Origin: an uncultured delta proteobacterium
Lineage (GTDB): Bacteria; Myxococcota_A; Polyangia; Fen-1088
Length of the DNA stretch: 64,000 nt
Assembly: GCA_963796685.1 (NCBI GenBank)
Contig: CAWCMR010000005.1
Location: 361,513 to 425,512, forward strand
Direction: 5' to 3'
Both the position numbers and the translations under genes were made by a program. Shown piece after piece: positions 40,593 through 63,731 of this stretch; the stretch's first letter is position 1, and each line of letters begins with the position of its first letter. The notes beneath the pieces are model-generated. The model ran no database searches, was not told the DNA's origin, and was given only the letters and a program-made list of their open reading frames with translations.

Positions 40593-41944
40593 GCATCTCC
40601 TCGGCCGGGGCACGTATCTCCGGGCTGAGATGAGAAAGACCTTTCTCTGGCGTGACGGCCACGCACAACGCTTCGTAGAGCGGCGAGAGACGCTCGTCCA
40701 TTCCAGTCTCCTTAAGGAGCTCAATGGCTTTCTTGCCCACCCCGTGCTTAAGACACGTCTGACAAAACATCGTCAATTCCACCACGACCACCCCGGCCGG
40801 CGTGTTATCGGATGAGTCGAGACTGCCAAGGACTTGCGCTACTCGGCGTCTGGCCAAGAGCCAATCACCTTTGTCAAGCCATGACATCGCTGAGAAGATG
40901 AGCGCTTGCCGTGCCGCGATGCTACTGACCTCCAACGCCCGCAGGACCACGGCGTCGGGAAAGCCTGTCTTGGAGAGGCCATCGCCCACCACAAAAGGAG
41001 TATCGAGCACATCCTCCGACCGGGCGCTAAGAGAGAGAAAATGATCGACTTCTTCCGGTCTCGAAAACTCAGGCAGAGCGGGAAGATCGCCGCGTCCGAT
41101 GGCTTCAAGGACCCTTGGATCAATGGGTAGACCCGAACCTGGCAACTTCGTCCCTAGCAAATCACGCTTCTTGCTGTAGTTGCCTGTCAGGACCTTTGCA
41201 AACGTGATCTTGTATCGCATCGACAACACGGGATTGCATGCCAGAGCCTCCGCAAATCGCTTGGCCGTCATTCCCTTCGGCCACCTCACCTTGGCCTTGA
41301 GGATATTCGCGCGCACGTCCCGCAGCGCCCGCGCGCGATCCACGACGGGGGCCAGATGGGCGTCCTCGCCCGCGAGGTCGAGAAGCTCACGAAGCTCGCT
41401 CATCCGGCCACACTCTTCGAGCAGAACATGGATGGCGCGCAGCTTGAGTTGCCTGCGCAAGGCGGGCTCGTCGATCGCCGAGGCGAAGGCGAACAGCTTG
41501 GCCGTCCCGCCGGCGATCGCTCTTTGGCCTGCAGTCGTGGCCAGGAGATCCTCGGCCCGGCGCCGCAACTCCCGATCGCCATAGAAGACCCGCAAGAACT
41601 CGACCAGCCATCTCAAGCGCCGCCGCAAACGGCGGCTCGCGCGCATCAGGTACCAGATGTTGAAGAAACGCTCGGCCATCTGAAACCCGAGCTTGCCGGT
41701 CTCGGACAGGGACACCTTCGAGAGAACTCCCTGGCGACACAACCGGTCGAGCTGGGCGGACACGACGTTGATCCCGATCCGCGTGCGGCTTGCGCAGTCG
41801 GCAGCGGTCATCGGATGCCAGTGAAGCGCCACCGTGTTGACGATGAGCTGGCTTTGGGTCGGTAGATCCTCGAAGCGCGCCTTGTAGTAGGGCGAGGAGG
41901 TGGGGGTTGTAGATTGTGGAGGCAAAGCGCTTCACGGAGGTCAT
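40560..41944 (-). pseudogene. ATPase-wHTH-helical protein with most of the ATPase domain deleted
   Basis: Start MTSVKRFASTIYNPHLL joined out of frame to PYYKARFEDLP...ERFFNIWYLMR; no Walker A. Confidence 0.6.
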
Positions 41945-42402
41945 CGCACGTGCCTCTCCCAGTAGCGGCGCAGGAGTCCTGAGCGAAACCGCCAGCGACC
42001 TTGGTGCTCCACCAAGTAGCCGTCGTTAAGCAACACGTCGAGAAGCCAGATCAGGGTCGTGGTTCGTTCGGCAAGATCAGGAATCTGAACGCCTAGACAC
42101 TGGGACAAGGACGACATCGTGGCGCCCTTCGATTCACGCGCGCATGTCGCGAGAACGAGCCGTGCGAATTTGTCCTCCGGCGTGCCCAGCGCCTCGCGGA
42201 GCCGCCCCACCCACGAATTGAAATAGGTCTTGCGCGCCAGAAGCAGCGCTGGCGAGTCTCCTCGAGAAAACGGTCCGCGGTCGTTCCATCGTAGGGACCA
42301 AGACGCCAGTCCCGAAGATCGTTGATGGTATCGGTAAGGAGGTACCGACGGGTCACGCTGTCCAGGCCCACCGAGCCGGCAAGGACGAATCGGAGTTTTG
42401 CC
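41941..42402 (-). pseudogene. C-terminal remnant of the partner ATP-binding protein
   Basis: LRFVLAGSVGLD...TINDL, then in another frame YFNSW..RL...LLNDGYL...FRSGLLRRYW. Confidence 0.6.
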
Positions 42403-42724
42403 AGCGCGCAGCAGAGCATCCCAATCTGCGTGTGCTTCGGCTGGGAAGATTGGCGGGCGAAGCCCCGGAATCGCCAAGGCAGCATCCGCCAGCACGGCGG
42501 AGTGCCAGCTTGCGCCGGCCCGCTCTGGCAGACCCGCCACGCGTTCCAGTCGCACCAGAATCGCCTCGAACGCTTGGTATGCGTGATCGAGCGAGAGTGC
42601 CACAAGCGCGGCCTGGGCATCGCCGTGAAAGGGATCAGCGCCGCGGGCGCGGCCTAGATGAGTCTTCCCAATCGCGGTGACACTCGGCAGCCGCAAGGGC
42701 CGCGCGTGCTTCGGCCGGGCTCAC
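42403..42724 (-). pseudogene. Truncated HEPN (HepT-like) toxin
   Basis: LDHAYQAFEAILVRL...GASWHSAVL...IPGLRPPIF...DALLR, ending before the Rx4H motif. Confidence 0.65.
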
Positions 42725-43954: not shown

Positions 43955-44221
43955 ATGACACCTGAGGTTCGTGCGTACCTGGCCGAGATCGGACGACGCG
44001 GGGGGCGGCGCAGTCGGCGCGTTCTGCCGCCGGAGACCGCTCGGCGAATGGTGCGGCTGCGCGAAGCGAGGCGTGCCTTCAAACGCTTCCACGCGAGGTG
44101 CTTCTGGTCTTCGCCGAAGGACTACGTGGTGACAGTGGAGGACATTGCGTGGGTCGCACGCCAGCTGATGACCCACGGTGGACGTGATGGCTGGCGGACG
44201 GGAGCGAGTCTATGCCGCTAA
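43955..44221 (+). CDS. Putative antitoxin (YLAEIGRRGG...CFW type)
   Basis: Small basic ORF overlapping the NTase start; AT-rich region upstream. Confidence 0.7.
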   Translation: MTPEVRAYLAEIGRRGGRRSRRVLPPETARRMVRLREARRAFKRFHARCFWSSPKDYVVTVEDIAWVARQLMTHGGRDGWRTGASLCR

Positions 44222-44988
44222 CCTCGTTCCAGGCCGCCATTGCCGAGCTCCTGGCAGTCAATCGCTCTTTCGACAGCTATCTGGCCGGCGGCGCGGCGCT
44301 GCACCTCGAGCCCAACTCCAAACGGTACAGCAACGACCTCGACTACTTCCACGACTCGGAGGAGCGGGTTGCGGTGGCGGTCCGCGACGATACGCGATTG
44401 CTCGAACAGTCGGGCTACGAGGTCGAGGTATTGATGCAGCAGCCGGGTTTCACGCGCGCGATCGTGCGCAAAGGCGAGGAAGCGACCAAGCTCGAATGGG
44501 CGCACGATTCTGCATGGCGCTTCTTGCCCACGGTTCGCAGCGAACGTTCGGGCTTTCAGCTCTCGGGCGTGGATCTCGCCATCAACAAGCTGCTGGCGCT
44601 GGTCGGCCGCGACGAACCGCGCGACTACCTCGACATCCACGAAGCGATGGACCTACTGCCTCTTGGGGCCTTGTGTTGGGCCGCAGCCGGGAAGGATCCC
44701 GGTTTCACGCCCGCCATGTTGCTCGATCTGCTGCGCCGTCGCGGCCGGTATCGCCCCGAGGACTTCGGCCGGCTTCACCTCGCAGAGCCGGTCGACCTAC
44801 CGAAGTTGAAACAGCGGTGGTTGGCCGCTCTGGACGAGGCCGAGCACTTCTTCACCACGCGCGACCCGAGCGAGATCGGTTGTCTCTACTATTCTCGTTC
44901 GTTGGGGAAATTCGTCGAGCCACGGCCAGGCGACGACGTGGTTCCGCACTACGGTCGCCCGGGCGGCGTACTTCCCACCGTGGGGTAG
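44212..44988 (+). CDS. AbiEii-like nucleotidyltransferase (type IV TA toxin-like)
   Basis: YLAGGAAL...RYSNDLDYF, NKLLALVGRDEPRDYLD. Confidence 0.8.
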   Translation: MPLTSFQAAIAELLAVNRSFDSYLAGGAALHLEPNSKRYSNDLDYFHDSEERVAVAVRDDTRLLEQSGYEVEVLMQQPGFTRAIVRKGEEATKLEWAHDSAWRFLPTVRSERSGFQLSGVDLAINKLLALVGRDEPRDYLDIHEAMDLLPLGALCWAAAGKDPGFTPAMLLDLLRRRGRYRPEDFGRLHLAEPVDLPKLKQRWLAALDEAEHFFTTRDPSEIGCLYYSRSLGKFVEPRPGDDVVPHYGRPGGVLPTVG

Positions 44989-45005: not shown

Positions 45006-46172
45006 CTATTCCCGATCCTTGATCGGTGTCTCGCGCAGGTCCGCCGTGGTCACCGAGGTCGTGCCGAACTTCTTTTGGATGCGGTCGAGGGCGGCGTTGA
45101 GACGGCCGCTGCGGCGATCGGAATCGAAGAGCGAGAGCTGTCCCTCCCCCGCGAGAATCGACTGGGCCGAGACGCCCGTGAGCCGAACCTTCTGCTGCAG
45201 GCGCTGGGCGGAAAGCAGCGCGCTGGCCGCGCGGTAGAGCGCCTGACCGTCGTCGGTCGGCTCGGGCAAGGTCGTTCGGCGCGTGAGCAGCGTGAAGTCG
45301 GCCAGCTTGAGCTTGAGCTGCACCACGGTCGTCTTCCTGCCCGCCTGGCGCAGGCGGCGTCCCACGCGCAGGGCCTGGGCATGCACGTACGGCAGCAGCG
45401 CCTCCTTGCCGGCCAGGTCCTCGTCGAAAGTGTCCTCGGCCCCGATGCTCTTCGCCTCGCGGTCGGGCACCACCTTGCGCGGATCGATCGCGCACGCCAG
45501 ATCCCACAGATCGCGACCACCCGACACGCGCTTGCCCAGCCAATCGGGATCGGCGTCCGCGATCTGGCCGATGGTGCGCAGGCCAAGCTCGGCCAGCACG
45601 GCCTCGGTCTTGGGGCCCACGCCCCACAGACGCGCGACGGGCAGCGGGGCAAGAAACGTCCGCTCCGCGCCGGGCGCGACTTCCTTCTGTCCGTTCGGCT
45701 TGGCCAGATCCGAGGCGATCTTGGCCACGAACTTCACCGAGGCGATGCCGGCCGACGCGGGCAGGTCCACCTCGGCCGCGATGCGCGCACGCAGGTCGGC
45801 GGCGATCTTGCCCGGAGGGCCGAAGAGCTCGCGCGACGCGGTCACGTCCAGGAACGCCTCGTCGAGCGAGAGCGGTTCGATGAGCGGGGTGACCGAAGCC
45901 ATGATGGCGAACACCGCGTCGCTTGCCTCCGCGTACGCCCCCATGCGTGGCGGGACGACGATGGCCGTGGGCGCCTTGCGCACGGCGATCGCCATGGGCA
46001 TGGCCGAGCGCACCCCGAAGGGGCGCACCTCGTAGGAGGCGGCCAGCACGACCCCGCGCTTCGGGTGGCCGCCCACGATCACGGGTTTGCCGCGCAGGTC
46101 GGGAAAATCGCGCTGCTCGACCGACGCATAGAAAGCGTCCATGTCGAGGTGAATGATGGCGGCGGCGCTCAC
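45006..46172 (-). CDS. dinB: DNA polymerase IV
   Basis: IIHLDMDAFYASVEQ, ASYE, SLDEAFLD, AKIASDLAKPNG, LWGVGPKT. Confidence 0.96.
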   Translation of the reverse strand: MSAAAIIHLDMDAFYASVEQRDFPDLRGKPVIVGGHPKRGVVLAASYEVRPFGVRSAMPMAIAVRKAPTAIVVPPRMGAYAEASDAVFAIMASVTPLIEPLSLDEAFLDVTASRELFGPPGKIAADLRARIAAEVDLPASAGIASVKFVAKIASDLAKPNGQKEVAPGAERTFLAPLPVARLWGVGPKTEAVLAELGLRTIGQIADADPDWLGKRVSGGRDLWDLACAIDPRKVVPDREAKSIGAEDTFDEDLAGKEALLPYVHAQALRVGRRLRQAGRKTTVVQLKLKLADFTLLTRRTTLPEPTDDGQALYRAASALLSAQRLQQKVRLTGVSAQSILAGEGQLSLFDSDRRSGRLNAALDRIQKKFGTTSVTTADLRETPIKDRE

Positions 46173-46277: not shown

Positions 46278-46715
46278 TCACCCTCGTTGCTCTGAACGCG
46301 GGCGCAGTCCCATCGATGAAGCTGCTCTCATTTGGTGGATGTCAAACGTGACGAATTCCGTGAAGTTGTTGTGAAGGGCGGTCACGATGTGGATGCAGTC
46401 GGAAGAGCGAAGAAATACCGTGGGCGGCAGCGTGGCAAAGGCCTCGGCCGCCGCTCTCATGATCAAGCTATCGATCGGAAGCCACGTCCAGAAGCCTGCC
46501 AAATCATCGTGCTGAAACTGCCGAACTGCGGCCGTGAAGTCTCTCCGATTCCAGTCTCCTTCGCGCAGACGCCGATGAAAGACCGCCATGAGCTCGGGCC
46601 GAACCAGCTCCGAGACACATACTCCGTCTTCCGTCTCGAGGAGCTGACGTAACGCCCGGGATTCCTTTTCCGGGACGTAGAACTTCGCCACCGCAGATGT
46701 GTCGCAAGCAATCAT
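46278..46715 (-). CDS. vapC: VapC-like PIN toxin
   Basis: DTSAVAKFYVPE, LRSSDCIHIVTA, FVTFD. Confidence 0.85.
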   Translation of the reverse strand: MIACDTSAVAKFYVPEKESRALRQLLETEDGVCVSELVRPELMAVFHRRLREGDWNRRDFTAAVRQFQHDDLAGFWTWLPIDSLIMRAAAEAFATLPPTVFLRSSDCIHIVTALHNNFTEFVTFDIHQMRAASSMGLRPRSEQRG

Positions 46716-46961
46716 CGATCGCCGCGAATCGCATCCAGATCCTCGAGCACGCTGCCCGAGGTCTTGCGAGATAGCAGAAGCTCGGTACTCGGGCAACAAG
46801 GTTCGCCCTGGTCGCCGCGAGCGCAGCAGGGCCGGTTTGGCCAGCACTGCGACGGGTCTGCCCCGGTCCGTAATGGCTATCGGCGCGTTCGACCGGGCTG
46901 CCCGTCTGACGTGCTCACCCGTCGTCTGATGGAGCTGCTTGATACTGATGCTGGATCGCAT
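46712..46961 (-). CDS. Phd/YefM-like antitoxin, frameshifted into the toxin frame
   Basis: ISIKQLHQTTGEHVRRA...ITDRGRPVAVL; natural-looking end VLEDLDAIRGDR* lies in another frame. Confidence 0.75.
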
Positions 46962-46969
46962 GGTGTAAC

Positions 46970-46986
46970 GGTGACACTTCGTCACC
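46970..46986. promoter_or_regulatory. Probable TA operator
   Basis: GGTGAC-N5-GTCACC upstream of the antitoxin. Confidence 0.45.
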
Positions 46987-47030
46987 ATGCGGTCAAGCTC
47001 AAGCGCTACTTGCCCGCGTCGAAGGCCGAG

Positions 47031-48515
47031 CTATTCCGTGACGGGGACGCCGCTCTGGTCGCACGAGTAGAACGAATCGTAGTCTCCGACCACCGACAGA
47101 TTCTGGCCCTTGACGTTGTCCTGCCAGGCGCAGGTGGGCATGCAGCAGTCCTGCATGGTGGTGATGGTGTAGCCCGACTTGAACGAGGAATCCGCGGCGG
47201 CCTGCTCGGGCGTGGCGACCGCGGGATTCACGGCCGGCAGGCCCTGCGGCGCCAGCTTGCACCCCGTGACCTGGGTGAGGTGCGTTGGGCATTCGACCCG
47301 CTTGGCGTAGATCTTCCAGTTGATGTGGTAGTAGGTGTTGGCGTTGTTCGATTGCGTGCACGAGTTGATGGATTCGTTGGTCACCGTGGTCGAGCTGGAC
47401 TTGAACTTTCCGCATGAGGTGGCCACGTTGGCCTGGCAGGTCGCCGAGGACAACGTGGCGGTGGTGACCAGGTTGTTGCTGTTCTTGCAGCCCGCGACCT
47501 GGGTGGCCGCGTTCACGCCACCCGAGCCGGGCTCGCCCTCGGTCGGGAACTGGGTGTAGAGGTACTTGCCCGAGGGACTCTTCATCGACGCGTTCGGATC
47601 GCACGCGTTGAAGGCGCCGAAGCCGCCCGCGCCCATGAACACGTCGAAGTTCTGGCCGCCGCCGGCCGAGGTGTTGAAGGCCTGCACCACCAGGGGCGGC
47701 GGAATGGGAATGGCCGAGGCGCCATTGCCGCTGACCTGCGCCTCGTTCTCGGGCAAGCTGAAGACCAGCTGGTAGCACTGGCAGCAGCTGATGGTCACGT
47801 TGCCGTCGATGCCGCCGGTTTCCACGTCGTGGCCCACCACCGCGTAGTTCAGGCCCGTGTAGCCGTCATCCAGGGCAGCCTGGGCCATCTCGTCGGAGAA
47901 GAGCATGAAGCGAGGGCACAGGAAATTGACCTGCGCGCCTTGCTTGGTGCCTTCGCACGCATTCTGCCCCTGCGTGCAGACGCCACCGCCGGGCGACGTG
48001 GCGGAGCCGGCTTGGCACCCCTTGATGTAGAACTGATTGATCATCTGGTTGGGCGGAGGCAGCGCATAGACGAGGGGTGGAGGTCCGGTATCGATGGGGG
48101 CATCCACGGCGGCGTCGGCCTGGGTCGTGCCGCCCGCGCCCGAGGAGGAAGAACCGCCCGACGAAGACGTGCCGCCCGCGCCACCGCTGGGAACGCCGCC
48201 GGCGCCACCGTGCGCGGCTCCGCCACCACCCGCGATGCCACCCTCGCCGGCCGATCCGCCCGCGCCCGTGCTGCCGCCACTGTTCGCCGAGCCGCCGAGG
48301 CCCGAGGCGCCACCGCCGGCCGTCGTGCCGCCCGCGTTCGAGGCTCCGCCCGAGCCCGGTGCGGTGGAGGTGCTCGTCGAGGTGTCGGTTCCCGGCGCAC
48401 GCGCGCGTGCACAACCACCGAGGGTCAGCCCAAGCGCGCAGGCCGCCAACAGCAGCCGCGCGCTGGCAGGCAGGAAGGTGGAACGCAAGATGTCAAGACC
48501 TGGAACTACGGTCAT
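47031..48515 (-). CDS. Lipoprotein with Gly/Ser linker and GH45-like endoglucanase domain (apparently circularly permuted)
   Basis: LGGC lipobox; CCQCYQLVF, VQAFNT, NFDVFMGAGGFGAFNAC, RVECPTHLTQVTGC; TTMQDCCMPTCAW near the C-terminus. Confidence 0.8.
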   Translation of the reverse strand: MTVVPGLDILRSTFLPASARLLLAACALGLTLGGCARARAPGTDTSTSTSTAPGSGGASNAGGTTAGGGASGLGGSANSGGSTGAGGSAGEGGIAGGGGAAHGGAGGVPSGGAGGTSSSGGSSSSGAGGTTQADAAVDAPIDTGPPPLVYALPPPNQMINQFYIKGCQAGSATSPGGGVCTQGQNACEGTKQGAQVNFLCPRFMLFSDEMAQAALDDGYTGLNYAVVGHDVETGGIDGNVTISCCQCYQLVFSLPENEAQVSGNGASAIPIPPPLVVQAFNTSAGGGQNFDVFMGAGGFGAFNACDPNASMKSPSGKYLYTQFPTEGEPGSGGVNAATQVAGCKNSNNLVTTATLSSATCQANVATSCGKFKSSSTTVTNESINSCTQSNNANTYYHINWKIYAKRVECPTHLTQVTGCKLAPQGLPAVNPAVATPEQAAADSSFKSGYTITTMQDCCMPTCAWQDNVKGQNLSVVGDYDSFYSCDQSGVPVTE

Positions 48516-48547: not shown

Positions 48548-48625
48548 GTAGGGGCGGGTTTGAAACCCGCCCCTACAGATGCGAGAATAGACGTACGAAT
48601 CCGTAGGGGCGGGTTTGAAAACCCG
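48548..48625. repeat. Two GTAG-type REP elements
   Basis: GTAGGGGCGGGTTTGAAACCCGCCCCTAC palindrome and a partial second copy. Confidence 0.75.
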
Positions 48626-48631
48626 GTGTTC

Positions 48632-50233
48632 TCAATGCCACTCCCAGTTGATGTAGCCTGGCTTGGCGTCGGCCATGGCGTTGACCATCAGCTCGACCAA
48701 TCCGCCGTAGTGCAGGCCGGCCTTCTCGTGGGCCTTGTAGAACGAGATGATCTCGCGCATCTGCCCCTTGCAGTTGCTGCACGGGGCGCAGACGTATTTG
48801 TGGTTCTCGGCGCCCATGGGCTCGCCCTGGAAGGCCTCCAGGATCTGCCTGAATTTTCGCCGCCCCGTGAGATGGTGACGCCAACTGGCGAAATTGCGTC
48901 CGCTCATGATGGCGAATCCCGAGCCGCCGCCGCAGCAGTAGTTGTTCACCCCGTGCGGGGTCATCTCGCGGAAGCGCTCTTTGGGCACGACCTGGCCCAG
49001 GATTTCCCGCTGCGGCGACACGATCCCCATCAGGCGCACGTAGTTGCACGGGTCGTGCAAGGTGACGGGGAAGTCGTTGCGGCTCTTGTCGAAGCGGATG
49101 GCGCCGGAGCGCGCGATATCGCGCAGAATGGGCATGGAGCTTTCGCGCGGAATGTTGAGCCCGCCGGTCAGCACCTTGTCGGCGATGACGGTGAGCGCCT
49201 TGTGGGCGTGCCCGCACTCGCCGAGGACGATCTTCTTCACGCCGAGCTTCTCGGCGATCTGCATGTGGCGCAGGGCCGTGCGCGCGAACTGCACGTCGTC
49301 GTAGAAGACGCCATAGTTGATGCCGTCGTAGGCGGGCGCCTCGCTGGACATGGTCCAATTGAGGCCGGCCTGGTTGAAGAGCAGGCTGAAGCCGCCGATG
49401 TTCTCGGGCCAGGCCATGATCTCGCCAGCGTTGTGGATGAGGAGGATGTCGGCGCCCTTCTTGTCGAACGGCGTGACGACCTTGATGCCGGTCTTTTCGC
49501 TGGTGTCGTCGTCGATGAACTCCATGTTGCTCTTGAGCACGTCCGGGTTCATGCCCGTGGACGAGCCGACCTTGAGCTGCAACATCGAGCCGTCCTCGTG
49601 CAACTCTTTGGGGTGGATGCCCATCTCCTGGCTGGCGATCTTGCGGATCTCGCGCGCCATGAGCCCGTTGTCGACGCCCATGGGACAGGTCTGCGCGCAG
49701 CGCCGACAGAGGTTGCAGCGGTAGGAAAGCTCCAGCAGCCGGACCACCGTCCGCCAATTCAAATCGATGTCGCCATGGACGAAGGTCGAGGCGCCCTTGA
49801 CGTACTTGAAATAGATGCGGCGAAGGATCTCCGAGCGGAACGACGGTCGGTACAGCTCGTTCTTTCCGCTTTCCTCGAAGATGTGGCAGGCCTCCGAGCA
49901 GGTCTGGCAACGCGCGCAGTGCTCGACGGAGAACAGCAACGGCTGCAGGAAGGTCCAGTTGTCGGCCGCGGAGAAGAGCTTGCGCAAGCCCGACAAGAAG
50001 GCATTGACCAACCGCTCTTCTTCCGCCGGGGTCGTGGGCTTCGGGATATTGAGCGCGATGGTGTCGTCCAAGCAGACGAGCTTTTGGCGAACCTCGTCGG
50101 CGAGCGGGGCGATCCGGGGCTCGTCTTCCAATTTGTCGAAGGGTGGTGGCAGCGGGACCTGGTCTTCAAGCCCCACCTTGGCAACCGGGCCGTCGCCCTG
50201 GGAGAAGGAGCGAAAGGTCACGCCGCCGCTCAT
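48632..50233 (-). CDS. DsrK/HdrD-like Fe-S protein with CCG domain
   Basis: CARCQTCSEAC, CNLCRRCAQTCP, GECGHA, HDPCN, CCGGGSG, CAPCSNC. Confidence 0.85.
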   Translation of the reverse strand: MSGGVTFRSFSQGDGPVAKVGLEDQVPLPPPFDKLEDEPRIAPLADEVRQKLVCLDDTIALNIPKPTTPAEEERLVNAFLSGLRKLFSAADNWTFLQPLLFSVEHCARCQTCSEACHIFEESGKNELYRPSFRSEILRRIYFKYVKGASTFVHGDIDLNWRTVVRLLELSYRCNLCRRCAQTCPMGVDNGLMAREIRKIASQEMGIHPKELHEDGSMLQLKVGSSTGMNPDVLKSNMEFIDDDTSEKTGIKVVTPFDKKGADILLIHNAGEIMAWPENIGGFSLLFNQAGLNWTMSSEAPAYDGINYGVFYDDVQFARTALRHMQIAEKLGVKKIVLGECGHAHKALTVIADKVLTGGLNIPRESSMPILRDIARSGAIRFDKSRNDFPVTLHDPCNYVRLMGIVSPQREILGQVVPKERFREMTPHGVNNYCCGGGSGFAIMSGRNFASWRHHLTGRRKFRQILEAFQGEPMGAENHKYVCAPCSNCKGQMREIISFYKAHEKAGLHYGGLVELMVNAMADAKPGYINWEWH

Positions 50234-51195
50234 TTCCTGATCTCCGTCGGGTTTTCCATGGCCAGGTCGGCCCAGGTCTTCTTGCCCGCGCCGCGGATGT
50301 GCTCGGCATCCCATGAAACCTTGTACGCGAGCAGCTTGGCGATTTTGGCTTCCTGCGGGCCGCCGGCCAGGTTGGGTCTGTCGTTCCAGCGGATGGCGTG
50401 GTACGCGAAATACTTGCCCACGAAATGGGACATGTGCGTAAGCGGGATGTAGGCGACGAGCGAGCTCGACAGCACCACCGTCGCCGTCGGCAGAAGCCAA
50501 TCGATGCCCGTGCCCGGCAGAGACGTCAAATTGAAGGCCGTCAGGTTGGTCGCGAACGCCATCGCCAGGTCCGCGTGCCTATCCACCAATCCGAAGGTGA
50601 GCAAACCGGAGGCGAAAGTGACGATGAAGAAGACGAGATTGAAGATGTCCGCGGGCACGGTGTGCGCCCGCAGCGCGGGCAGGGTCAGTCGTCGGTGCAA
50701 GAGCGAAAGAGCCCCCAGGCAACCAAGTGCAAGGCCGGCAACGCCGAGCACCAGCACGATCTCATGGGCAACTTTCCCCGGACCTCCGGCGAGAAGCTGC
50801 GGCGCAAGCGCGCGCCCAAGGCCCGCCAACAGCGCCAGCCCCGCCGCGCCTCCCGCCAGGTACAAACCCAAATGAAAGGGAAACGTACGCGCCCAAAGCT
50901 GGCGGTTGTGCTCCCTGACCGAGGACAGCAGCAGCACTTCGGGAAGGGTGGCCTTGACCGCGCCGAGCGGGGACGTCTTACGCGGCTGCTTCCACCAGTC
51001 GGCTTCCTCCATGAACGAGCCGCCGTAGCGGGACTTTCCCGCGGGCGCATGGGGAACAGGATAAAGCTCCCAGCGCATGTGCATGGGCAGCCTCGCCCAC
51101 ATGACGAAGCGGGCGATCACCGTGACCGTGAACGAAACCAGCGCCAGGTAGCATAGGAGGTAGGGTAACTGGGACACCTGGCTGGCTAATTGCAT
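50230..51195 (-). CDS. DsrM/NarI-like cytochrome b membrane subunit
   Basis: RWELYPVPH, FPFHLGLY, YIPLTHMSH, WDAEHI...TWADLA. Confidence 0.82.
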   Translation of the reverse strand: MQLASQVSQLPYLLCYLALVSFTVTVIARFVMWARLPMHMRWELYPVPHAPAGKSRYGGSFMEEADWWKQPRKTSPLGAVKATLPEVLLLSSVREHNRQLWARTFPFHLGLYLAGGAAGLALLAGLGRALAPQLLAGGPGKVAHEIVLVLGVAGLALGCLGALSLLHRRLTLPALRAHTVPADIFNLVFFIVTFASGLLTFGLVDRHADLAMAFATNLTAFNLTSLPGTGIDWLLPTATVVLSSSLVAYIPLTHMSHFVGKYFAYHAIRWNDRPNLAGGPQEAKIAKLLAYKVSWDAEHIRGAGKKTWADLAMENPTEIRK

Positions 51196-51513
51196 TTTCC
51201 GGGCCGCGGTCGAGCGGTAGGGCATCGCGCGGGCAATCCCGGGATTCGGCCGAAATACCGAGTGCCCGGAAATTCGCGTCCCGCGCGCACGCCGCTAGGC
51301 CATCAAATATGCTGGCATAGGCCGTGGCCGGCGCTGGCTCCGCTCGTTGCCGGGGCCGGCCCGGCACGTCGGATGGCTCCGTTCCCGAGTGCCGCGCACA
51401 CCACCCGGGATCGCACACGCGTTCCGGGTGCCGTCAGGGGAGAATAGCGAGAATGAGCGGGAGCTGTCGGGAGAGGATCGGATGGGTTTCGGTGGTAACA
51501 TCTTCACGACGAC

Positions 51514-57117: not shown

Positions 57118-57677
57118 TTAGGCTGACAGTCCCGATCGGTTTGTCACGATCACACCACGCGGAAGTAGAGCCGCTAGCCGCTCGAAATCGGGTTGGAGAG
57201 CACGCACTACCGCTTCACTCTCAACCTCGACAAGGTAGTCGAACACATTCTTGGCCGTATGGCCGACCGGGCCCCGATCGCCTCCGTCAGTCCCGCCGGA
57301 GCCGCACACGCCTGCGCGGCAATGGCGGGAAAGTCCATCACGATCCGATCGCTCCAGCGCTGGGCTGTGAGCAGGCCGCTCCGCGTTTGGAAATGTGCCG
57401 CCTCTGTCTCGCGTAGCCGTCCTGACTCCCAAAGAAGGTGTGCGCTCGCCAGCGTAGCGTGCCCGCAGAGCTCGACCTCGACGGTCGGTGTGAACCATCG
57501 CAAGCGAAACACGTCACCTTCGGGGAACAAAAAGGCCGTTTCCGAGAGGTTCATCTCTCTCGCGACAAGCCTCATCCAGCGGTCGTCCGCCGGCTGGTCC
57601 AGGACGCACACCGCCGCCGGATTGCCGGTGAAAGGTTGACTAGTAAATGCATCCACGATGACGATCGATTGGCCCAT
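57118..57677 (-). pseudogene. PhzF-family isomerase, frameshifted and 3'-truncated
   Basis: VDAFT..PFTGNPAAV, NLSETAF, EVELCGHATLA; frame change near 57260; EDPVTG motif absent. Confidence 0.8.
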
Positions 57678-57854
57678 GTGCGGTGTCGGGAGCATAGCCC
57701 ATTGGCGGCGGTGCGACCTAACAGAGGACCGGGTTCTCCACTCGGGGGCGGTAAGAAAGCGTTGCCTCGGCACGCCGCCTTTGAGATCCGATCTTCCGCG
57801 GTTGTGGTTTCCACCCTGCCCCGCCGGCACTACACTCGGCGGCTGGAGGTCTTC

Positions 57855-60800
57855 ATGCGTCGTTTGCTTGCCATGCTTGTCCGAGCCCTGACAGCCGCCT
57901 TGGGCCGTTGGGATCCGCCGCCGTGGGTGCGCTGGAATGGCCGACAGGCGAGGCGCGGCGGTGTCTGGGCCTGGGGCCACAAGGTCAAGGCGACATGCCT
58001 CGTCGTCGCGCTGGTCGGTGCCTCGCTGGGCGGTGTCTACGGTTGGCGCTGGTGGCAGGGGCGACCCAAGCCCGCGACGGTGGCCGTGCACGTGTTCGAA
58101 CCGGGGCTGACCCCGATTGGCGAGAAGGCCACGCCGCGCCCGCTGCGCGTGGAGTTCTCGGCCTCGGCCGCGCCGCTCAAGGCGGTGGGCACGGTGGTCA
58201 AGAAGGGCATCGTCGTCGACCCGAAGATCGACGGCATCTGGAAGTGGGTCTCGGATCGCGAGCTCGAGCTGCGCCCGCGCGAGGACTGGCCGGTGGGGCA
58301 GAAGTTCAGCGTGCGCTTCGAGCGCAAGGGCCTGGTCGCAAGCCACATCAAGCTGGCCAAGTACGACTTCGACTTCTCGACCGCACCTTTCGTTGCGCGC
58401 CTTCGGCAGGCCGAGTTCTACCAGGACCCGGTGGATCCCAATCTCAAGAAGATCGTCTCGGAATTCGCCTTCAGCCATCCCGTGGACGGGCCGTCGTTCG
58501 AGAAGAACATCAGGATGCGCTTCGAGCCCACCAACAAGGAAGAACGCAGCTTCGATCTGGAGGCGCACGTCACCTACGACAAGTGGAAGGCGCGCGCCTT
58601 CGTGCACTCGAATCCCTTCGCGCTGCCGCAGAAGGACGCGCTGGTCACACTGCGCCTCCTGCCCGGCAGCCAGGCCGCGCGCGGCGGGCCCGCCATGGAC
58701 AAGCCCATCGAGCAGAAGGTCCGGGTGCCGGGCCTGTACAACTTCTTCCGCGTCAGCTCGACGCAGATCCAGATCGTCGACAACCCGCGCATGGAGCCCG
58801 AGCAGATCCTGGTCATGCAATTGTCGACGGCGGCGACGGAAAAGGAGATCGGTAAGAGCTTCGAGGCCTGGCTCTTGCCGACCAAGAACCCGCACGACGA
58901 GAGCAAGCACAAGGGCGCCTACCGCTGGGACAACCCCGAGTCGGTGGACGGCGAGGTGCTGGGCAAGGGCAAACGGTTGGCGTTGACCCAGCTGCCGGCC
59001 GAGAAGGAGCTCTCGTCCGACCACAGCTTCCGCTTTCACGCCGATCCGGGACGCTTCATCTACTTGCGCCTGAAAAAGGGCGTGCAGGCCTTCGGCGGCT
59101 ACATCCTGGGCGAGGACCACCAGGCGATCCTCGAGGTTCCGCCCTTCCCGCGCCAGGTGAAGCTGCTGCACAGCGGCTCCCTACTGGCGCTGAGCGGGCA
59201 GCGCAAGCTGTCGGTGTTCGTGCGTGACGTGCCCGGCCTGCGCTTCGAGGTCGCGCGCGTCCTGTCCGAGCAGATCCACCACGTGTTCAGCTTCAACAAC
59301 GGCTCGTTCTCGAAACCCAGCCTGCAATACCCCGTCACCCAGGAACACCTGGCCGAGATCGAAGTCGAGACGCGGGAGGTGACGGCGCCGCCCGGCAAGC
59401 CGGCCTACGAGACCTTGGATCTCGGCAAGTACCTCGACGGCAGCTCCGGGGCGCGGCGCGGCCTGTTCTTCATCAAGGTGGAAAGCTGGAGCCCGCAGAC
59501 GAAACAGACCATGGGCGAGGCCGACACGCGCCTGGTGTTGGTGTCCGATCTCGGCATCCTGTCCAAGGAAGCCGGCGACGGCAGCCACGACGTGTTCGTG
59601 CAGTCGATCCAGACCGGCAAGCCCGTGGCCGGCGCGCACGTGCAGGTCATCGGCCGCAACGGCCAACCCGTGCTCGGCCAGACCACCGACGGCGAAGGCC
59701 ACGCGCGTCTGCCGTCGCTGCGCGATCTGCGCCAGGAGAAGGCGCCCACCATGTTCCTGGTGACGCTGGGTCGCGACACCTCGTTCTTGCCCTATGGCCG
59801 CCAGGATCGGCTGCTCGACATGAGCCGCTTCGACGTGGGCGGGGTGACCGACTCCGAGAGCAACCAGGGACTGTCGGCCTACGTGTTCTCCGAGCGCGGC
59901 CTGTACCGCCCGGGCGATGAGATCCATATCGGCGCCCTGGTACGCAGCCGCGACCTTGGCCAGGATCTGTCGGGGCTGCCGCTGGAAATGGTAGTCAGCG
60001 ACGCGCGCGGCATGGAGGTAAAACGCCAGCGCTTCAAGCTCGGCGCCACGGGCCTGGAAGAATTCTCGCACCGCACGCGCGAGGAATCCCCCACCGGCAA
60101 CTACACGGTGTCGCTGTACACGGTCAAGGACGGCCGCGCCGACAGCCAGATCGGCAGCACCTCGGTCACCGTGCGCGAGTTCCTGCCCGACCGCATGACC
60201 ATCCACAGCAGCTTCTCGCTGGAGAACCCGGCGGGCTGGGTGACGCCCAAGGGCCTCGAAGGTCGGGTCAGCCTGGCCAATCTCTTCGGCACGCCCGCGA
60301 CCGACCGCCGCATCCGGGCCAAGCTCATCCTGACGCCCGGCATGCCGTCGTTCCCGTCGCTGCGCGATTTCCATTTCTACAATCCGCAAAAGAACATCGA
60401 GCCCACGGAGCAGCAATTGCCCGATGGGAAGACCGACGCCGAAGGAAAGGCCACGGTCGCGCTCGGGCTCGACCGCTTCGCCGATGCGACCTATCGCCTG
60501 ACCCTGGTGACCGAAGGCTTCGAGGCCGAGGGCGGGCGCTCGGTGACGTCCGAGGCCTCCACCGTCGTGTCGCCGCGGCCGTGGCTCATCGGGTACAAGA
60601 GCGACGGCGACTTGCAGTATGTGAACAAGGACGCGGCCCGGGAGGTCGAGCTGGTCGCGGTGGGTCCCAAGGGCGCCAAGGTCGCGGCCGACAAGCTGCA
60701 GATGGTGGTGCTCGAACGCCGCTACGTCTCGTCGCTGGTGCGCCTGGAAAACGGGACCTTCCGCTACCAATCGGTGCGCAAGGACGTGGAGGTGTCGCGC

Positions 60801-63731
60801 AAACCCTTCGCGCTGCCGGTCGCTGGCGCGCGCGCCAAATTGCCGACCGACAAGGCCGGCGACTTCGCGCTGTCGCTGCAAAACGCGACGGGCGAGGTCG
60901 TCCAGGAGATCCCCTTCGCCGTGGCCGGCTTCGGCAATCTGGCGCGGTCGCTGGAGAAGAACGCCGAATTGCAGCTCGCCCTCAAGACCGGCGACGTGGC
61001 CCCCGGCGGCGAGCTCGAAATGCAGATCAAGGCGCCCTACACGGGCAATGGCCTCATCACCGTCGAGCGCGAGAAGGTCTTCGCCTGGAAGTGGTTCCAC
61101 ACCAGCGAGACGGCGAGCGTGCAGAAGATCAAGGTACCGGCCGAGCTGGAGGGCGGGGGCTACGTCTCGGTGTCGTTCGTGCGCGACGCGGCCTCGGAGG
61201 AGGTGTTCATGAGCCCGCTCAGCTACGCCACGGTGCCCTTCGCCATCAGTCGCGGCAAGCGCGCCTTGAACGTGAAGGTCGACACCGAGGACCTGGTGAA
61301 ACCGGGAGACAAGCTGACCATGAAGCTCAGCGCGAATCGCAAGGGCCGCGCCCTGGTCTATGCCGTCGACGAGGGCATTTTGCGCGTGGCCCACTACCAC
61401 ACCCCGGATCCGCTGAGCCATTTCCTGCAGAAGCGCGCGCTCTCGGTGCGCACCACGCAGATCCTCGATCTGATCCTGCCCGAGCTGGCCAAGCTGCAAG
61501 ACACGGCCGCCCCGGGCGGCGACGGGGAGGAGGCCGCGCTCGGCGCCAACTTGAATCCCTTCCGGCGCAAGCACGACAAGCCGGTCGTCTTCTGGTCCGG
61601 GATCGTCGAGGTCGGACCGCAGGCCACGGAGCTGAGCTACGACGTGCCCGACAACTTCAACGGCACCCTGCGCGTGATGGCCGTGGCGGCCTCGGACCTC
61701 GGCATGGGTGCGTTCGACAAGAAGATCCTGGTGCGCGGCGACTTCGTGATCAGCCCCAACGCCCCGACCTTCGCCGCGCCCGGCGACGAGCTGGACGTCT
61801 CGGTGGGGCTGGCCAACAACGTGGTCGGCTCGGGCAAGAACGCCAAGCCCAAGCTGTCGCTGACCACCTCGAGCCACCTCGAGATCATCGGCCCGCGCGA
61901 GATCGAGCTGCCCATCGGCGAGATGCGCGAGGGCAGCGCCGTGTTCCGCGTGCGCGCCCGCAAGGAGCTGGGCTCGGCCAGCCTGCGCTTCGAGGCCCGC
62001 CTCGGCGACAAGCATGCTCGCCTGACCACCGATCTCAGCGTGCGCCCGGCGTCGCCTTTCGTGACCACCTTGCAGGCCGGGTACCTCAAGAACGGCAACA
62101 CCACCGCGACCATCGAGCGCAAGCTGTTCGCCGAGCACCGCACCCTCGATGCGGGCATCGCGGCGGTTCCCTTGTCGCTGGCCCACGGCCTGGCCGACTA
62201 CCTGGCCAGCTTCCCGCACGCCTGCACCGAGCAACTGGTCAGCCAGGCCGCGCCAGCGGTGGTGCTGGGCAAGCGGCCCGAATTCGGTTTCGACAAGGCC
62301 AAGTCCGCGATGGCGGTCGCCAATTTGATCGATGTGCTGCGCTCGCGGCAGAACGAGGAGGGCGGCTTCGGGCTGTGGACCGCCAATCCCAAGAGCGCGA
62401 CCGTGCCCACGGTGTGGGCGCTGCACCTTCTGACCGAGGCGCACGAGCGAGGGTATGCCGTGCCCGAAGAGCTGATGAGAAACGGCCTGCGCTACCTCGA
62501 AACCCTGGCCAGCGAGACGCCCGACGATCTCGCCGACTCGCGCATCCGGGCCCACGCGCTCTACGTGCTGGCCCGCAATGACGTCAAGGTGGGTCGTCAC
62601 GCGGCGGCCTTGCAACACTGGCTGGAAGCCAACGCCGGGAAGGCGTGGCGCGAAGAGCTGGCCAGCGCGTATCTCGGCGCCACCTACAGCATCCTGAAAC
62701 AGGACAGCCTGGCGGGCGAGATCGCCGACGCGATCAAGCTCGGCGCCAAGCACCAGGCCGACTACGAGCACTACTACGACGACCTCGGGCACGATGCCCA
62801 GGCCCTGCTGCTCATCGCCCGGCACTTCCCCAAGCGCGCGGCGAAGGTCGGCAAGGAAGATCTGGACGGCATCGTGGCCGCGATAGCGAACGGCAGCTAC
62901 AACACCTTCTCCTCGGCGCTCAGCATCCTGGCCTTGGAGGCCTTCGCGGCCGTGGCCGCCGAGCCCGGCGCCACCACGCGGACCCTGCACGAGGTCGTGC
63001 AAGGCAACAAGCAGCCGCTGACCTTGCCGGGCGGTCTTTTGCCTCATGTGGCCTTCTCGGACAAGGCGACGGCCCTGGTCTTCGGTAGTCACGGCGACTT
63101 CGGCAGCTATTGGTCGCTGTCGCAAAGCGGGTTCGACCTCGAGCCGGCCAAGAAGGCCATGAGCAACAAGCTGGAGATCGTGCGCGAGCTCCTGGGCGAC
63201 GACGACAAACCCATCAAGAAGGTCAATCTCGGCGACGAGATCAGCGCGCGCATCCGGGTGCGCTCCTTGGGCGACCCGGTTTGGAACGTAGCCATCGTCG
63301 ACCTCCTCCCCGCCGGATTCGAGGTGGTCATGCAGACCGCGGAACAAGGCGGCGGTTCGTCCGAAGGCGAGGACCATGCCCAGCCGAACGACGAGCCCTC
63401 CGGCGAGGGGGAAGGCAATGAAGAACAAGGCGAGGGAGAAGGCGAAGGCCAGGAAGAAGGCGGCGAGGCAACGCCGAGCGGTGCGGCCGGCCCCGGCCTT
63501 CTGACCATCGCCTTGCCAGGCAGCGATCTCGCCCTCGACTACGTGGACGTGCGCGAGGATCGCGTCGTGCTCTACGGCTCCGTGGGCAAGCAGATGAGCA
63601 CCTTCCGCTACAAGATCAAGGCCACCAACGCCGGCAAGGTCGTGACCCCGGCGATCCACGCCGAATCCATGTACGACCGCTCGGTCCGCGCCAGGGGAGA
63701 GCCCGGGAGTCTCGTCGTCGTACGGCCATGA
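57855..63731 (+). CDS. Bacterial alpha-2-macroglobulin
   Basis: ERGLYRPGD, AVDEGIL, PDNFNGTLRVMAVA, thioester CTEQ, DLLPAGFE, REDRV, AESMYD; GGAGG RBS. Confidence 0.95.
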   Translation: MRRLLAMLVRALTAALGRWDPPPWVRWNGRQARRGGVWAWGHKVKATCLVVALVGASLGGVYGWRWWQGRPKPATVAVHVFEPGLTPIGEKATPRPLRVEFSASAAPLKAVGTVVKKGIVVDPKIDGIWKWVSDRELELRPREDWPVGQKFSVRFERKGLVASHIKLAKYDFDFSTAPFVARLRQAEFYQDPVDPNLKKIVSEFAFSHPVDGPSFEKNIRMRFEPTNKEERSFDLEAHVTYDKWKARAFVHSNPFALPQKDALVTLRLLPGSQAARGGPAMDKPIEQKVRVPGLYNFFRVSSTQIQIVDNPRMEPEQILVMQLSTAATEKEIGKSFEAWLLPTKNPHDESKHKGAYRWDNPESVDGEVLGKGKRLALTQLPAEKELSSDHSFRFHADPGRFIYLRLKKGVQAFGGYILGEDHQAILEVPPFPRQVKLLHSGSLLALSGQRKLSVFVRDVPGLRFEVARVLSEQIHHVFSFNNGSFSKPSLQYPVTQEHLAEIEVETREVTAPPGKPAYETLDLGKYLDGSSGARRGLFFIKVESWSPQTKQTMGEADTRLVLVSDLGILSKEAGDGSHDVFVQSIQTGKPVAGAHVQVIGRNGQPVLGQTTDGEGHARLPSLRDLRQEKAPTMFLVTLGRDTSFLPYGRQDRLLDMSRFDVGGVTDSESNQGLSAYVFSERGLYRPGDEIHIGALVRSRDLGQDLSGLPLEMVVSDARGMEVKRQRFKLGATGLEEFSHRTREESPTGNYTVSLYTVKDGRADSQIGSTSVTVREFLPDRMTIHSSFSLENPAGWVTPKGLEGRVSLANLFGTPATDRRIRAKLILTPGMPSFPSLRDFHFYNPQKNIEPTEQQLPDGKTDAEGKATVALGLDRFADATYRLTLVTEGFEAEGGRSVTSEASTVVSPRPWLIGYKSDGDLQYVNKDAAREVELVAVGPKGAKVAADKLQMVVLERRYVSSLVRLENGTFRYQSVRKDVEVSRKPFALPVAGARAKLPTDKAGDFALSLQNATGEVVQEIPFAVAGFGNLARSLEKNAELQLALKTGDVAPGGELEMQIKAPYTGNGLITVEREKVFAWKWFHTSETASVQKIKVPAELEGGGYVSVSFVRDAASEEVFMSPLSYATVPFAISRGKRALNVKVDTEDLVKPGDKLTMKLSANRKGRALVYAVDEGILRVAHYHTPDPLSHFLQKRALSVRTTQILDLILPELAKLQDTAAPGGDGEEAALGANLNPFRRKHDKPVVFWSGIVEVGPQATELSYDVPDNFNGTLRVMAVAASDLGMGAFDKKILVRGDFVISPNAPTFAAPGDELDVSVGLANNVVGSGKNAKPKLSLTTSSHLEIIGPREIELPIGEMREGSAVFRVRARKELGSASLRFEARLGDKHARLTTDLSVRPASPFVTTLQAGYLKNGNTTATIERKLFAEHRTLDAGIAAVPLSLAHGLADYLASFPHACTEQLVSQAAPAVVLGKRPEFGFDKAKSAMAVANLIDVLRSRQNEEGGFGLWTANPKSATVPTVWALHLLTEAHERGYAVPEELMRNGLRYLETLASETPDDLADSRIRAHALYVLARNDVKVGRHAAALQHWLEANAGKAWREELASAYLGATYSILKQDSLAGEIADAIKLGAKHQADYEHYYDDLGHDAQALLLIARHFPKRAAKVGKEDLDGIVAAIANGSYNTFSSALSILALEAFAAVAAEPGATTRTLHEVVQGNKQPLTLPGGLLPHVAFSDKATALVFGSHGDFGSYWSLSQSGFDLEPAKKAMSNKLEIVRELLGDDDKPIKKVNLGDEISARIRVRSLGDPVWNVAIVDLLPAGFEVVMQTAEQGGGSSEGEDHAQPNDEPSGEGEGNEEQGEGEGEGQEEGGEATPSGAAGPGLLTIALPGSDLALDYVDVREDRVVLYGSVGKQMSTFRYKIKATNAGKVVTPAIHAESMYDRSVRARGEPGSLVVVRP

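Follow-up and report, generated by a model that had tools for sequence, protein, structure and literature searches.

The 64,000-nucleotide stretch of contig CAWCMR010000005.1 analyzed here (the window), from an uncultured delta proteobacterium, carries on its minus strand one uninterrupted open reading frame (ORF), 47031..48515, that encodes 494 amino acids according to the ORF list and its translation. We consider it highly probable that the cysteine-rich domain of this protein is homologous to the endoglucanases of glycoside hydrolase (GH) family 45, with its segments in circularly permuted order. The features of the gene, with residue numbers of the encoded protein, are as follows.

47031..48515, minus strand: complete coding sequence, 494 amino acids, with the stop codon at 47031-47033 and the ATG at 48515.
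48411..48515, minus strand: putative signal peptide with lipobox L-G-G-C (Cys35), read from the sequence.
48090..48410, minus strand: low-complexity Gly/Ala/Ser/Thr tether, residues 36-142, recognized by composition.
47853..48089, minus strand: start of the catalytic domain, residues 143-221, with a Cys-rich N-terminal extension (C167, C180, C187), FLCPR (C200) and a helix.
47598..47852, minus strand: core segment, residues 222-306, equal to about 66-137 of GH45 in the profile alignment.
47643..47645, minus strand: Asp291, proposed catalytic acid (Asp121 of Humicola insolens EGV), aligned with the D of HFD in 1oa7.
47325..47597, minus strand: partly helical, expanded insertion, residues 307-397, in place of about 138-173 of GH45.
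47238..47324, minus strand: residues 398-426, INWKIYAKRVECPTHLTQVTGC..., equal to the canonical C-terminal strand and end of GH45, about 174-206.
47169..47237, minus strand: connector, residues 427-449, between matched stretches, joining the canonical C- and N-termini of GH45.
47052..47168, minus strand: relocated "N-terminal" segment, residues 450-488, TITTMQDCCMPTCAW...FYSCDQS, equal to GH45 4-34.
47148..47150, minus strand: Asp456, proposed catalytic base (Asp10 equivalent), codon gac at 47150-47148, aligned with D10 of 1oa7.

The initial annotation of this locus had placed the gene at 47031-48075. These coordinates cover the catalytic domain, but the ORF continues to the ATG at 48515, a start that is supported by the N-terminus MT.V.G.DI shared by the window protein and its homologues P0007, P0010 and P0011. 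The lipoprotein tether proposed in that annotation is seen as a lipobox, LLLAACALGLTLGG-C35, identified by pattern match alone, followed by a long linker recognized by its composition (G 37, A 21, S 18 and T 11 of the 105 residues 36-140), whose length and sequence differ between homologues. The window protein is thus predicted to be a bacterial lipoprotein, with its lipidation and cellular location likewise predicted. A strict lipobox pattern is present in 70 of 146 proteins of at least 380 amino acids in the gathered set, the window protein among them; of the remaining long relatives, many show by eye an A/G-C that resembles a lipobox and some are truncated, and in a small AT-rich group an N-terminal membrane anchor takes its place.

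The Cys-rich domain comprises residues 143-494 (352 amino acids; 47034-48089, minus strand). We take residues 143-221 to be GH45 from about residue 45 onward, on the basis of predicted local distance difference test (pLDDT) values of 92-98 past the first 10 residues, of the covariation of C200 with C485 and of C187 with C458, and of the Pfam matches of relatives, which start at GH45 profile positions 21-57 near their N-termini. The core segment that follows holds, in order, the NYAVVG strand, the CCQCY strand, the VVQAFN strand, the NFD acid motif, the GAGGFG loop and NAC. The insertion of about 90 residues contains four conserved cysteines (343, 360, 368 and 386) and, in the model, helices at domain residues 210-213, 216-226 and 234-247; it is shorter in relatives such as P0220, and no GH45 stretch was matched between profile positions 196 and 284 in the search of PDB sequences. 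The connector, of about 23 residues, has a short helix at domain residues 294-299 in the model. All of the motifs on which the initial annotation had based its proposal of a permuted GH45 are present in the translation of 47034-48515 (minus strand) in the order given there, namely CCQCYQLVF, VQAFNT, NFDVFMGAGGFGAFNAC and RVECPTHLTQVTGC, then TTMQDCCMPTCAW...FYSC. The last of these, the base motif, does stand at the extreme C-terminus, with FYSC ending 6 residues before the stop codon.

A family profile was built from 48 members and searched against all PDB sequences with E values up to 10. Ten PDB sequences were matched, all of them GH45 endoglucanases and all but one fungal, with E values from 1.1e-20 to 2e-17; nothing else was found. 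The Pfam GH45 model, PF02015, matches 25 of the 48 profile members (E <= 0.01) and 38 of 150 representatives of the family (E <= 0.001). Ten of the cysteines of GH45 align with family cysteines in the profile alignment, including all of those in CCxCY, VxCP and TGC. A feature-based Atlas search placed the domain next to clusters automatically named "GH45 domain-containing protein", the first of which is bacterial with Myxococcota as its commonest phylum. Rank 2 in the Atlas is likewise a GH45 cluster, with a 204-amino-acid representative and Myxococcota as its commonest phylum, a hint that GH45 of canonical length may occur in this phylum alongside the permuted form.

The profile matches fall into three separate stretches for nine of the ten PDB chains and into two for 5h4u. 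In the four alignments listed, profile positions 116-196 match GH45 66-137 (stretch E 6.6e-12 to 1.5e-10), which spans the CCxCY strand, the VVQ strand, the HFD motif, the GGGVG loop and the C of FDGC; positions 284-313 match GH45 174-206, RVQCPxxLxxxTGC (E 5.8e-05 to 0.053); and positions 337-371 match GH45 4-34, STRYWDCCKPSCxW...YSCDxN (E 0.0027-0.017). The split matches in swapped order that had been predicted for a permutant were thus found with the family profile against PDB. The canonical linear order, with the base strand first and VxCP...TGC last, is absent from the window family. A similar picture is given by the 17 listed PF02015 matches on relatives, which begin at profile positions 21-113 and never in the first 20, so that the first 20-110 positions go unmatched; five of them end at 212-214 of 214, within two positions of the end. 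For example, residues 47-255 of P0220 match PF02015 40-213, with DCC at residue 283, and residues 154-268 of P0196 match 110-214, with DCC at 296. Matches in two stretches, seen for some homologues with Pfam, were not shown by the C-terminal pieces to be a swapped pair. When 278 gathered proteins, including the window protein, were aligned to the family hidden Markov model, the acid and base columns were both present in 199, necessarily in permuted order, and 198 of these 199 have Asp at both. A DCCxPxC motif upstream of the acid was found in none of the 222 proteins with an acid column. The new termini are predicted to lie at about GH45 residues 35-45, because of the profile order, the limits of the Pfam matches and this lack of an upstream DCCxPxC. 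The C-terminal motif resembles the N-terminus of GH45 more than chance would explain.

Tandem-duplication intermediates were looked for among the gathered proteins and none was found. P0196 and P0249, which carry an extra DCC, were rejected as such intermediates, since the additional DCC falls within CCxCY or belongs to a Cys-rich tail that is unrelated.

The AlphaFold model of the domain is a confident one, with a mean pLDDT of 94.0 and a predicted template modelling score (pTM) of 0.93; domain residues 301-350 reach pLDDT values of 95-98. Strands at 304-312 and 333-338 (domain numbering) correspond in place to the first two of GH45. GH45 enzymes occupy all of Foldseek ranks 1-10, with probability 0.98-1.00 and template modelling (TM) scores of 0.46-0.60 by target, and the next match has an E value of 1.1, so that the only significant structural neighbours are of this family, as the initial annotation had anticipated. 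The predicted fold is a GH45-type double-psi beta-barrel.

Each of the cysteines of the relocated segment, C457, C458, C462 and C485, forms with a cysteine of the core a pair of reciprocal best partners in co-loss among the aligned proteins. The Fisher p-values given here ignore relatedness, and the lineage counts are the fairer measure.

C462 and C244: lost together 7 times, first alone 1, second alone 1; Fisher p 4e-11; four lineages, at no more than 34% identity.
C457 and C305: lost together 3 times, first alone 1, second alone 0; Fisher p 3e-6; two lineages.
C485 and C200: lost together 3 times, first alone 0, second alone 0; Fisher p 1e-6; one lineage.
C458 and C187: lost together 2 times, first alone 2, second alone 1; Fisher p 1e-3; one lineage.

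Core pairs behave alike (C245 and C419 with counts of 39, 2 and 1; C247 and C409 with 2, 0 and 1), and within the insertion 343 covaries with 360 and 368 with 386. The pairs 462-244, 457-305, 485-200, 245-419 and 247-409 align to EGV 16-86, 11-135, 31-56, 87-199 and 89-189, respectively. These data show the relocated segment to be coupled to the CCxCY strand and the post-acid loop, the face of the active site. With the pLDDT values, they are the basis on which the C-terminal segment is predicted to pack at the position of the GH45 N-terminus. The suggestion of a natural permutant of GH45 thus finds support in segment order, fold class, conservation and cysteine coupling.

A word-indexed search identified 695 homologues at E <= 0.001. 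Nearly all are without a name or called "hypothetical", and those that are named, a small number, come from metagenome-assembled genomes (MAGs) of Polyangia. At 50% identity the family has 169 representatives. Relatives were located at 196 loci in species-representative genomes, of which 80 were kept; all of these are MAGs, mostly labelled Myxococcales, Polyangia or Polyangiaceae, the rest having broader Proteobacteria or Deltaproteobacteria labels, plus one Sorangium and one Anaeromyxobacter. Several of the loci are from Zodletone MAGs. One subgroup (P0185, P0187, P0195, P0196, P0217, P0218, P0249 and P0262) is rich in Lys, Asn and Ile and has extra Cys-rich inserts; most of its members have an N-terminal membrane anchor and no lipobox (P0185, P0187, P0195, P0217, P0218 and P0262, with P0196 by eye). 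The composition suggests that this AT-rich subgroup may not belong to Myxococcota. Of the relatives scanned, P0196 comes nearest to the Pfam model of GH45, at 81.7 bits.

Passages of PMC5829257 describe H. insolens EGV as an inverting enzyme with a double-psi beta-barrel and an HFD motif, in which Asp121 is the proton donor and Asp10 the base, 11.3 A apart. Both residues are retained in the window family, as the initial annotation had stated for the window protein: Asp291, in NFD, is Asp in 217 of 221 relatives, and Asp456, in a DCC that stands near the C-terminus and not the N-terminus, is conserved in 224 of 226. The His position of HFD is Asn in 158 of 222.

We propose, with a probability of roughly 0.75 for the statement as a whole, that the window protein is a lipoprotein with a naturally permuted GH45 domain of subfamily A type, tethered to the cell and cleaving beta-1,4-glucan by inversion. 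The chain of this domain would start at about GH45 residue 45 and continue with the core strands and then the (H)FD motif of the acid, as far as the canonical C-terminus; the connector would then lead to the segment that is normally residues 4-34, which carries the base Asp and four cysteines. Lipidated at Cys35, the protein would hold its domain at the cell envelope on a flexible tether of about 105 residues. There it would cleave a beta-1,4-glucan (cellulose-like) by the single-displacement inverting mechanism of GH45, in which Asp291 would donate the proton and the relocated segment would provide the base, Asp456. The sequence is best read as that of an inverting endo-beta-1,4-glucanase that would be tethered to the envelope and act on plant-derived glucan; for cellulose-type endoglucanase activity itself the chance may be put at slightly better than even.

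Several observations weigh against this proposal. The window protein, whole or as the domain alone, matches no Pfam and no NCBIfam family, and a single-sequence phmmer search of it against PDB sequences gave noise only and no GH45; GH45 membership rests on the family profile because the window protein alone matches nothing. The C-terminal pieces by themselves (two from the window, one each from P0089 and P0121) likewise match no Pfam family. In Foldseek the TM scores by query are only 0.29-0.37, with root-mean-square deviations of 4.9-11.9 A. Moderate values are expected when a sequential aligner meets a permutant with insertions, and they prove nothing by themselves. The five EGV pairs named above (11-135, 16-86, 31-56, 87-199 and 89-189) are what we take to be the disulfides of that enzyme; a paper giving the map was not found in our search. 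Cellulose-binding modules occur in only 3 of the 150 representatives: P0126 has CBM_2 and Ig domains, P0134 two CBM_3 and fn3, and P0235 EGF and CBM_2. Gene neighbourhoods were surveyed as up to two ORFs on each side of 33 related loci, by using a crude ORF picker based on GC content at third codon positions; 76 of 107 neighbour candidates, from 28 loci, were examined, those dropped being mainly short ones. A gene for a carbohydrate-active enzyme (CAZyme) was absent from the neighbours in 19 of these 28 loci, and a conserved operon was rejected, with neighbours that differ from locus to locus and no constant partner in the 28. The window itself offers only unrelated neighbours, namely DinB, a Phd-PIN ORF and a CCG/Fe-S protein together with a NarI-like subunit. 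To these must be added changes around the active site. Tyr8, Asp114 and Ala74 are named in passages of PMC6509783 as further sites important for GH45 activity. In the window family the Tyr8 position is Met in 220 of 227 proteins, the Ala74 position is Gly in 205 of 220 (a mapping that assumes an inferred offset of +1 between 1oa7 and 2eng), and Asp114 has no counterpart, falling in an insert of the GH45 chains relative to the family profile.

These changes bear most directly on a first alternative, that the fold is a permuted GH45 but the substrate is another one, such as xyloglucan, glucomannan, mixed-linkage glucan, chitin or some other polysaccharide of the envelope or of prey, with the altered -1/+1 region setting the specificity. 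The alteration of the RYW positions reported in the initial annotation (T-M-Q in the window protein) is real and is not private to this gene but family-wide, the Trp9 position being Gln in 177 of 226 proteins. As the equivalents of Tyr8, Asp114 and Ala74 are replaced, specificity may therefore differ, and the changed specificity that had been suggested is a plausible guess. According to passages of PMC6509783, changes at Asp114 are tied to xyloglucanase activity in beetle GH45s, and (gluco)mannanase members have been reported. The insertion and the N-terminal Cys-rich extension could reshape the groove. A GH or polysaccharide lyase (PL) gene lies within two neighbours at 9 of the 28 loci: GH15 twice, GH3 with GH2, GH127, GH30, PL11 with CBM6, a pectate lyase, GH115 and GH28. 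Like the CBM fusions, these neighbours are also an indirect hint in favour of the main proposal. Of them, GH28, PL11, the pectate lyase, GH115, GH127 and GH30 are enzymes of pectin and hemicellulose, and classic cellulases were not seen among the neighbours. On the other hand, the few fusions to CBM_2 and CBM_3 point to crystalline polysaccharide, mainly cellulose, and both catalytic Asp residues are kept together with the framework of GH45 subfamily A. We regard a substrate of this other kind as unlikely, though by no means negligibly so.

A much less probable alternative is a non-hydrolytic protein on a GH45 scaffold that loosens or binds walls in the manner of expansins and loosenins. The secondary active-site residues at Tyr8, Asp114 and Ala74 are not kept; the feature-based Atlas matches include expansin-like clusters, with scores of 0.77-0.82; and the double-psi beta-barrel (DPBB) scaffold is common to expansins according to passages of PMC5829257. 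The same passages describe expansins and GH45 subfamily C as lacking the Asp10 base, however, a residue that nearly all members of the window family possess. Moreover, the profile matches GH45 chains only and no expansin, structures of barwin-like proteins, cerato-platanin and GH45 subfamilies B and C have E values above 1 in Foldseek, and among the 150 relatives no Pfam match to DPBB_1 or EXPB1_D1 is listed (E <= 0.001). We think it very improbable that the window protein is of the expansin type, and prefer the permuted hydrolase.

Still less credit can be given to the idea that there is no true permutation, the C-terminal DCCxPxCxW being a chance or convergent Cys-rich tail, or the remnant of a partial tandem duplication, located elsewhere in the structure. 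The motif alone has no Pfam match and its own E values against PDB are modest, as given above. The match nevertheless covers 31 residues and takes in both the YSC cysteine and the second strand, and the 222 proteins with an acid column offer no other upstream candidate for the first barrel strand or the base Asp. Profile positions 1-20 are never part of a Pfam match, all four cysteines in the segment covary with partners in the core, and the pLDDT and pTM values over the segment and the domain indicate a single compact domain. An artefact of assembly, frameshift or gene calling that joined pieces of a canonical GH45 in the wrong order has a negligible chance, as the gene is a single uninterrupted ORF and the 695 homologues and 196 loci, from many independent assemblies, share the order; with that order in 199 of 278 proteins and relatives at 196 loci in species-representative genomes, the permutation is not an assembly artefact.

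The closest known proteins are the GH45 subfamily A enzymes, represented by H. insolens EGV (2ENG, 3ENG, 4ENG and 1HD5), Melanocarpus albomyces (1OA7, 1OA9 and 1L8F), Thielavia terrestris (5GLX, 5GLY and 5GM9) and Neurospora crassa (6MVI and 6MVJ); the GH45 enzyme of the springtail Cryptopygus antarcticus (5H4U) was matched as well. The window family resembles subfamily A in its three-segment profile similarity, in its best structural neighbours, in the FD acid motif and in the base motif D-C-C-x-P-x-C-x-W. It is unlike subfamily A in being permuted, in its connector, insertion and N-terminal Cys-rich extension, and in the replacement of Tyr8 by Met, Trp9 by Gln and Ala74 by Gly and the absence of the Asp114 position. 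The window protein, as a putative lipoprotein of bacteria, is carried on a G/A/S/T tether; in N. crassa Cel45A (6mvi), a Cys-rich C-terminal module follows the core. A second group for comparison is formed by GH45 subfamilies B and C (Mytilus 1WC2; Ampullaria EG27II 5XBU and 5XCA; Phanerochaete PcCel45A 3X2x), expansins, loosenins and barwin-like proteins, which, as passages of PMC5829257 describe, share the double-psi beta-barrel as well as the acid Asp in (H)FD. PcCel45A, of subfamily C, and the expansin EXPB1 are among those described there as being without the Asp10-type base, whereas the window family keeps it. None of the subfamily B and C and DPBB proteins is matched by the family profile, and in Foldseek they have E values of 1.6-5.9.

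Upstream of the gene in the window is a further feature.

48548..48576, minus strand: terminator-like hairpin, between the upstream CCG/Fe-S gene and the start of the GH45-like gene.

The hairpin, a consensus match only, has a stem of 13 pairs, 9 of them G-C, followed by a T-rich tail. It is a strong one that separates the two genes, and it suggests that the GH45-like gene may not be co-transcribed with the upstream redox genes. The latter are 48632..50500 (minus strand), encoding a CCG-domain/4Fe-4S dicluster protein, and 50230..51225 (minus strand), encoding a NarI-like (nitrate reductase gamma) subunit, a pair that resembles a membrane-bound redox module; since the two ORFs overlap by about 270 bases, one of their starts is probably placed too far upstream.

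On the other side of the gene, a 236-amino-acid ORF at 46278..46988 (minus strand) combines an N-terminus like the antitoxins Phd/YefM (13-52, below the Pfam cut-off) with a VapC-like PIN domain (94-221). There is no stop codon between the two parts, which may be a fused toxin-antitoxin or two genes read through. HepT-like and AbiEii-like nucleotidyltransferase-toxin domains are found at 41941..42696 (minus strand) and 44212..44988 (plus strand), respectively, and together these ORFs form a small toxin-antitoxin-type cluster adjoining dinB. The permuted GH45 gene has a dinB gene of the IMS family in its vicinity in the window (45006..46172, minus strand) and also at the distant locus L068 (2835-4046, plus strand), where the relative has 45% identity and a pectate lyase gene stands beside it; the shared dinB may be chance. 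Farther away, 57438..63731 (plus strand) is a 2097-amino-acid ORF with the bacterial alpha-2-macroglobulin domains bMG3, MG2, bait region, A2M, bMG5 and bMG10, and the 1492-amino-acid ORF opposite to it, which is without a Pfam match, is probably spurious.

Circular permutation is the same kind of event as has occurred in other CAZyme families, of different folds and none of them GH45. GH70 is a natural permutation relative to GH13; a permuted pair of calcium-dependent carbohydrate-binding module families was reportedly described by Montanier in 2010, and Ramirez-Escudero is said to have described, in 2016, a subfamily of GH3 whose domain topology is permuted. In the full-text literature, whose coverage largely leaves out subscription journals, we found no description of a permuted GH45, and the mentions of permutation in the passages retrieved concern other families. 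Zodletone Myxococcota are described in 10.1101/2021.07.06.451402 as enriched in GH45, and for about ten myxobacteria in culture GH45 is recorded in a table that supplements PMC12093494. Because censuses of myxobacterial CAZymes count GH45, and several of our loci are from Zodletone MAGs, some proteins of the window family have probably been filed as GH45 already, their topology unremarked.

This is a real, widespread and apparently undescribed lineage of permuted GH45. A bolder statement, which we find possible but doubtful, is that the window protein is the founding example of an undescribed permuted GH45 subfamily widespread in Myxococcota, with AT-rich anchored relatives that are possibly eukaryotic or viral, and that a rebuilt -1 subsite (Tyr8 to Met, Ala74 to Gly, loss of the Asp114 loop and the 90-residue insertion) gives it a non-classical substrate or reaction. 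This is not a new type of system, as permutants exist in other CAZyme families and relatives are already labelled GH45 automatically, and its interest is mainly for specialists in CAZymes and in the evolution of folds. GH45 is a small family of cellulases with industrial uses and the structural link between glycoside hydrolases, expansins and lytic transglycosylases. The proteins described here are under-called or left "hypothetical" because standard models recognize no more than the middle part of the domain or, in the window protein, nothing at all, and CAZyme censuses of Myxococcota may miscount them. They offer a natural experiment on the double-psi barrel, in which the base would come from the opposite terminus, with the disulfide framework probably retained. 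For enzymology they form a set of diverged enzymes, probably tethered to the envelope, in which the altered residues of the subsite may encode new specificities.

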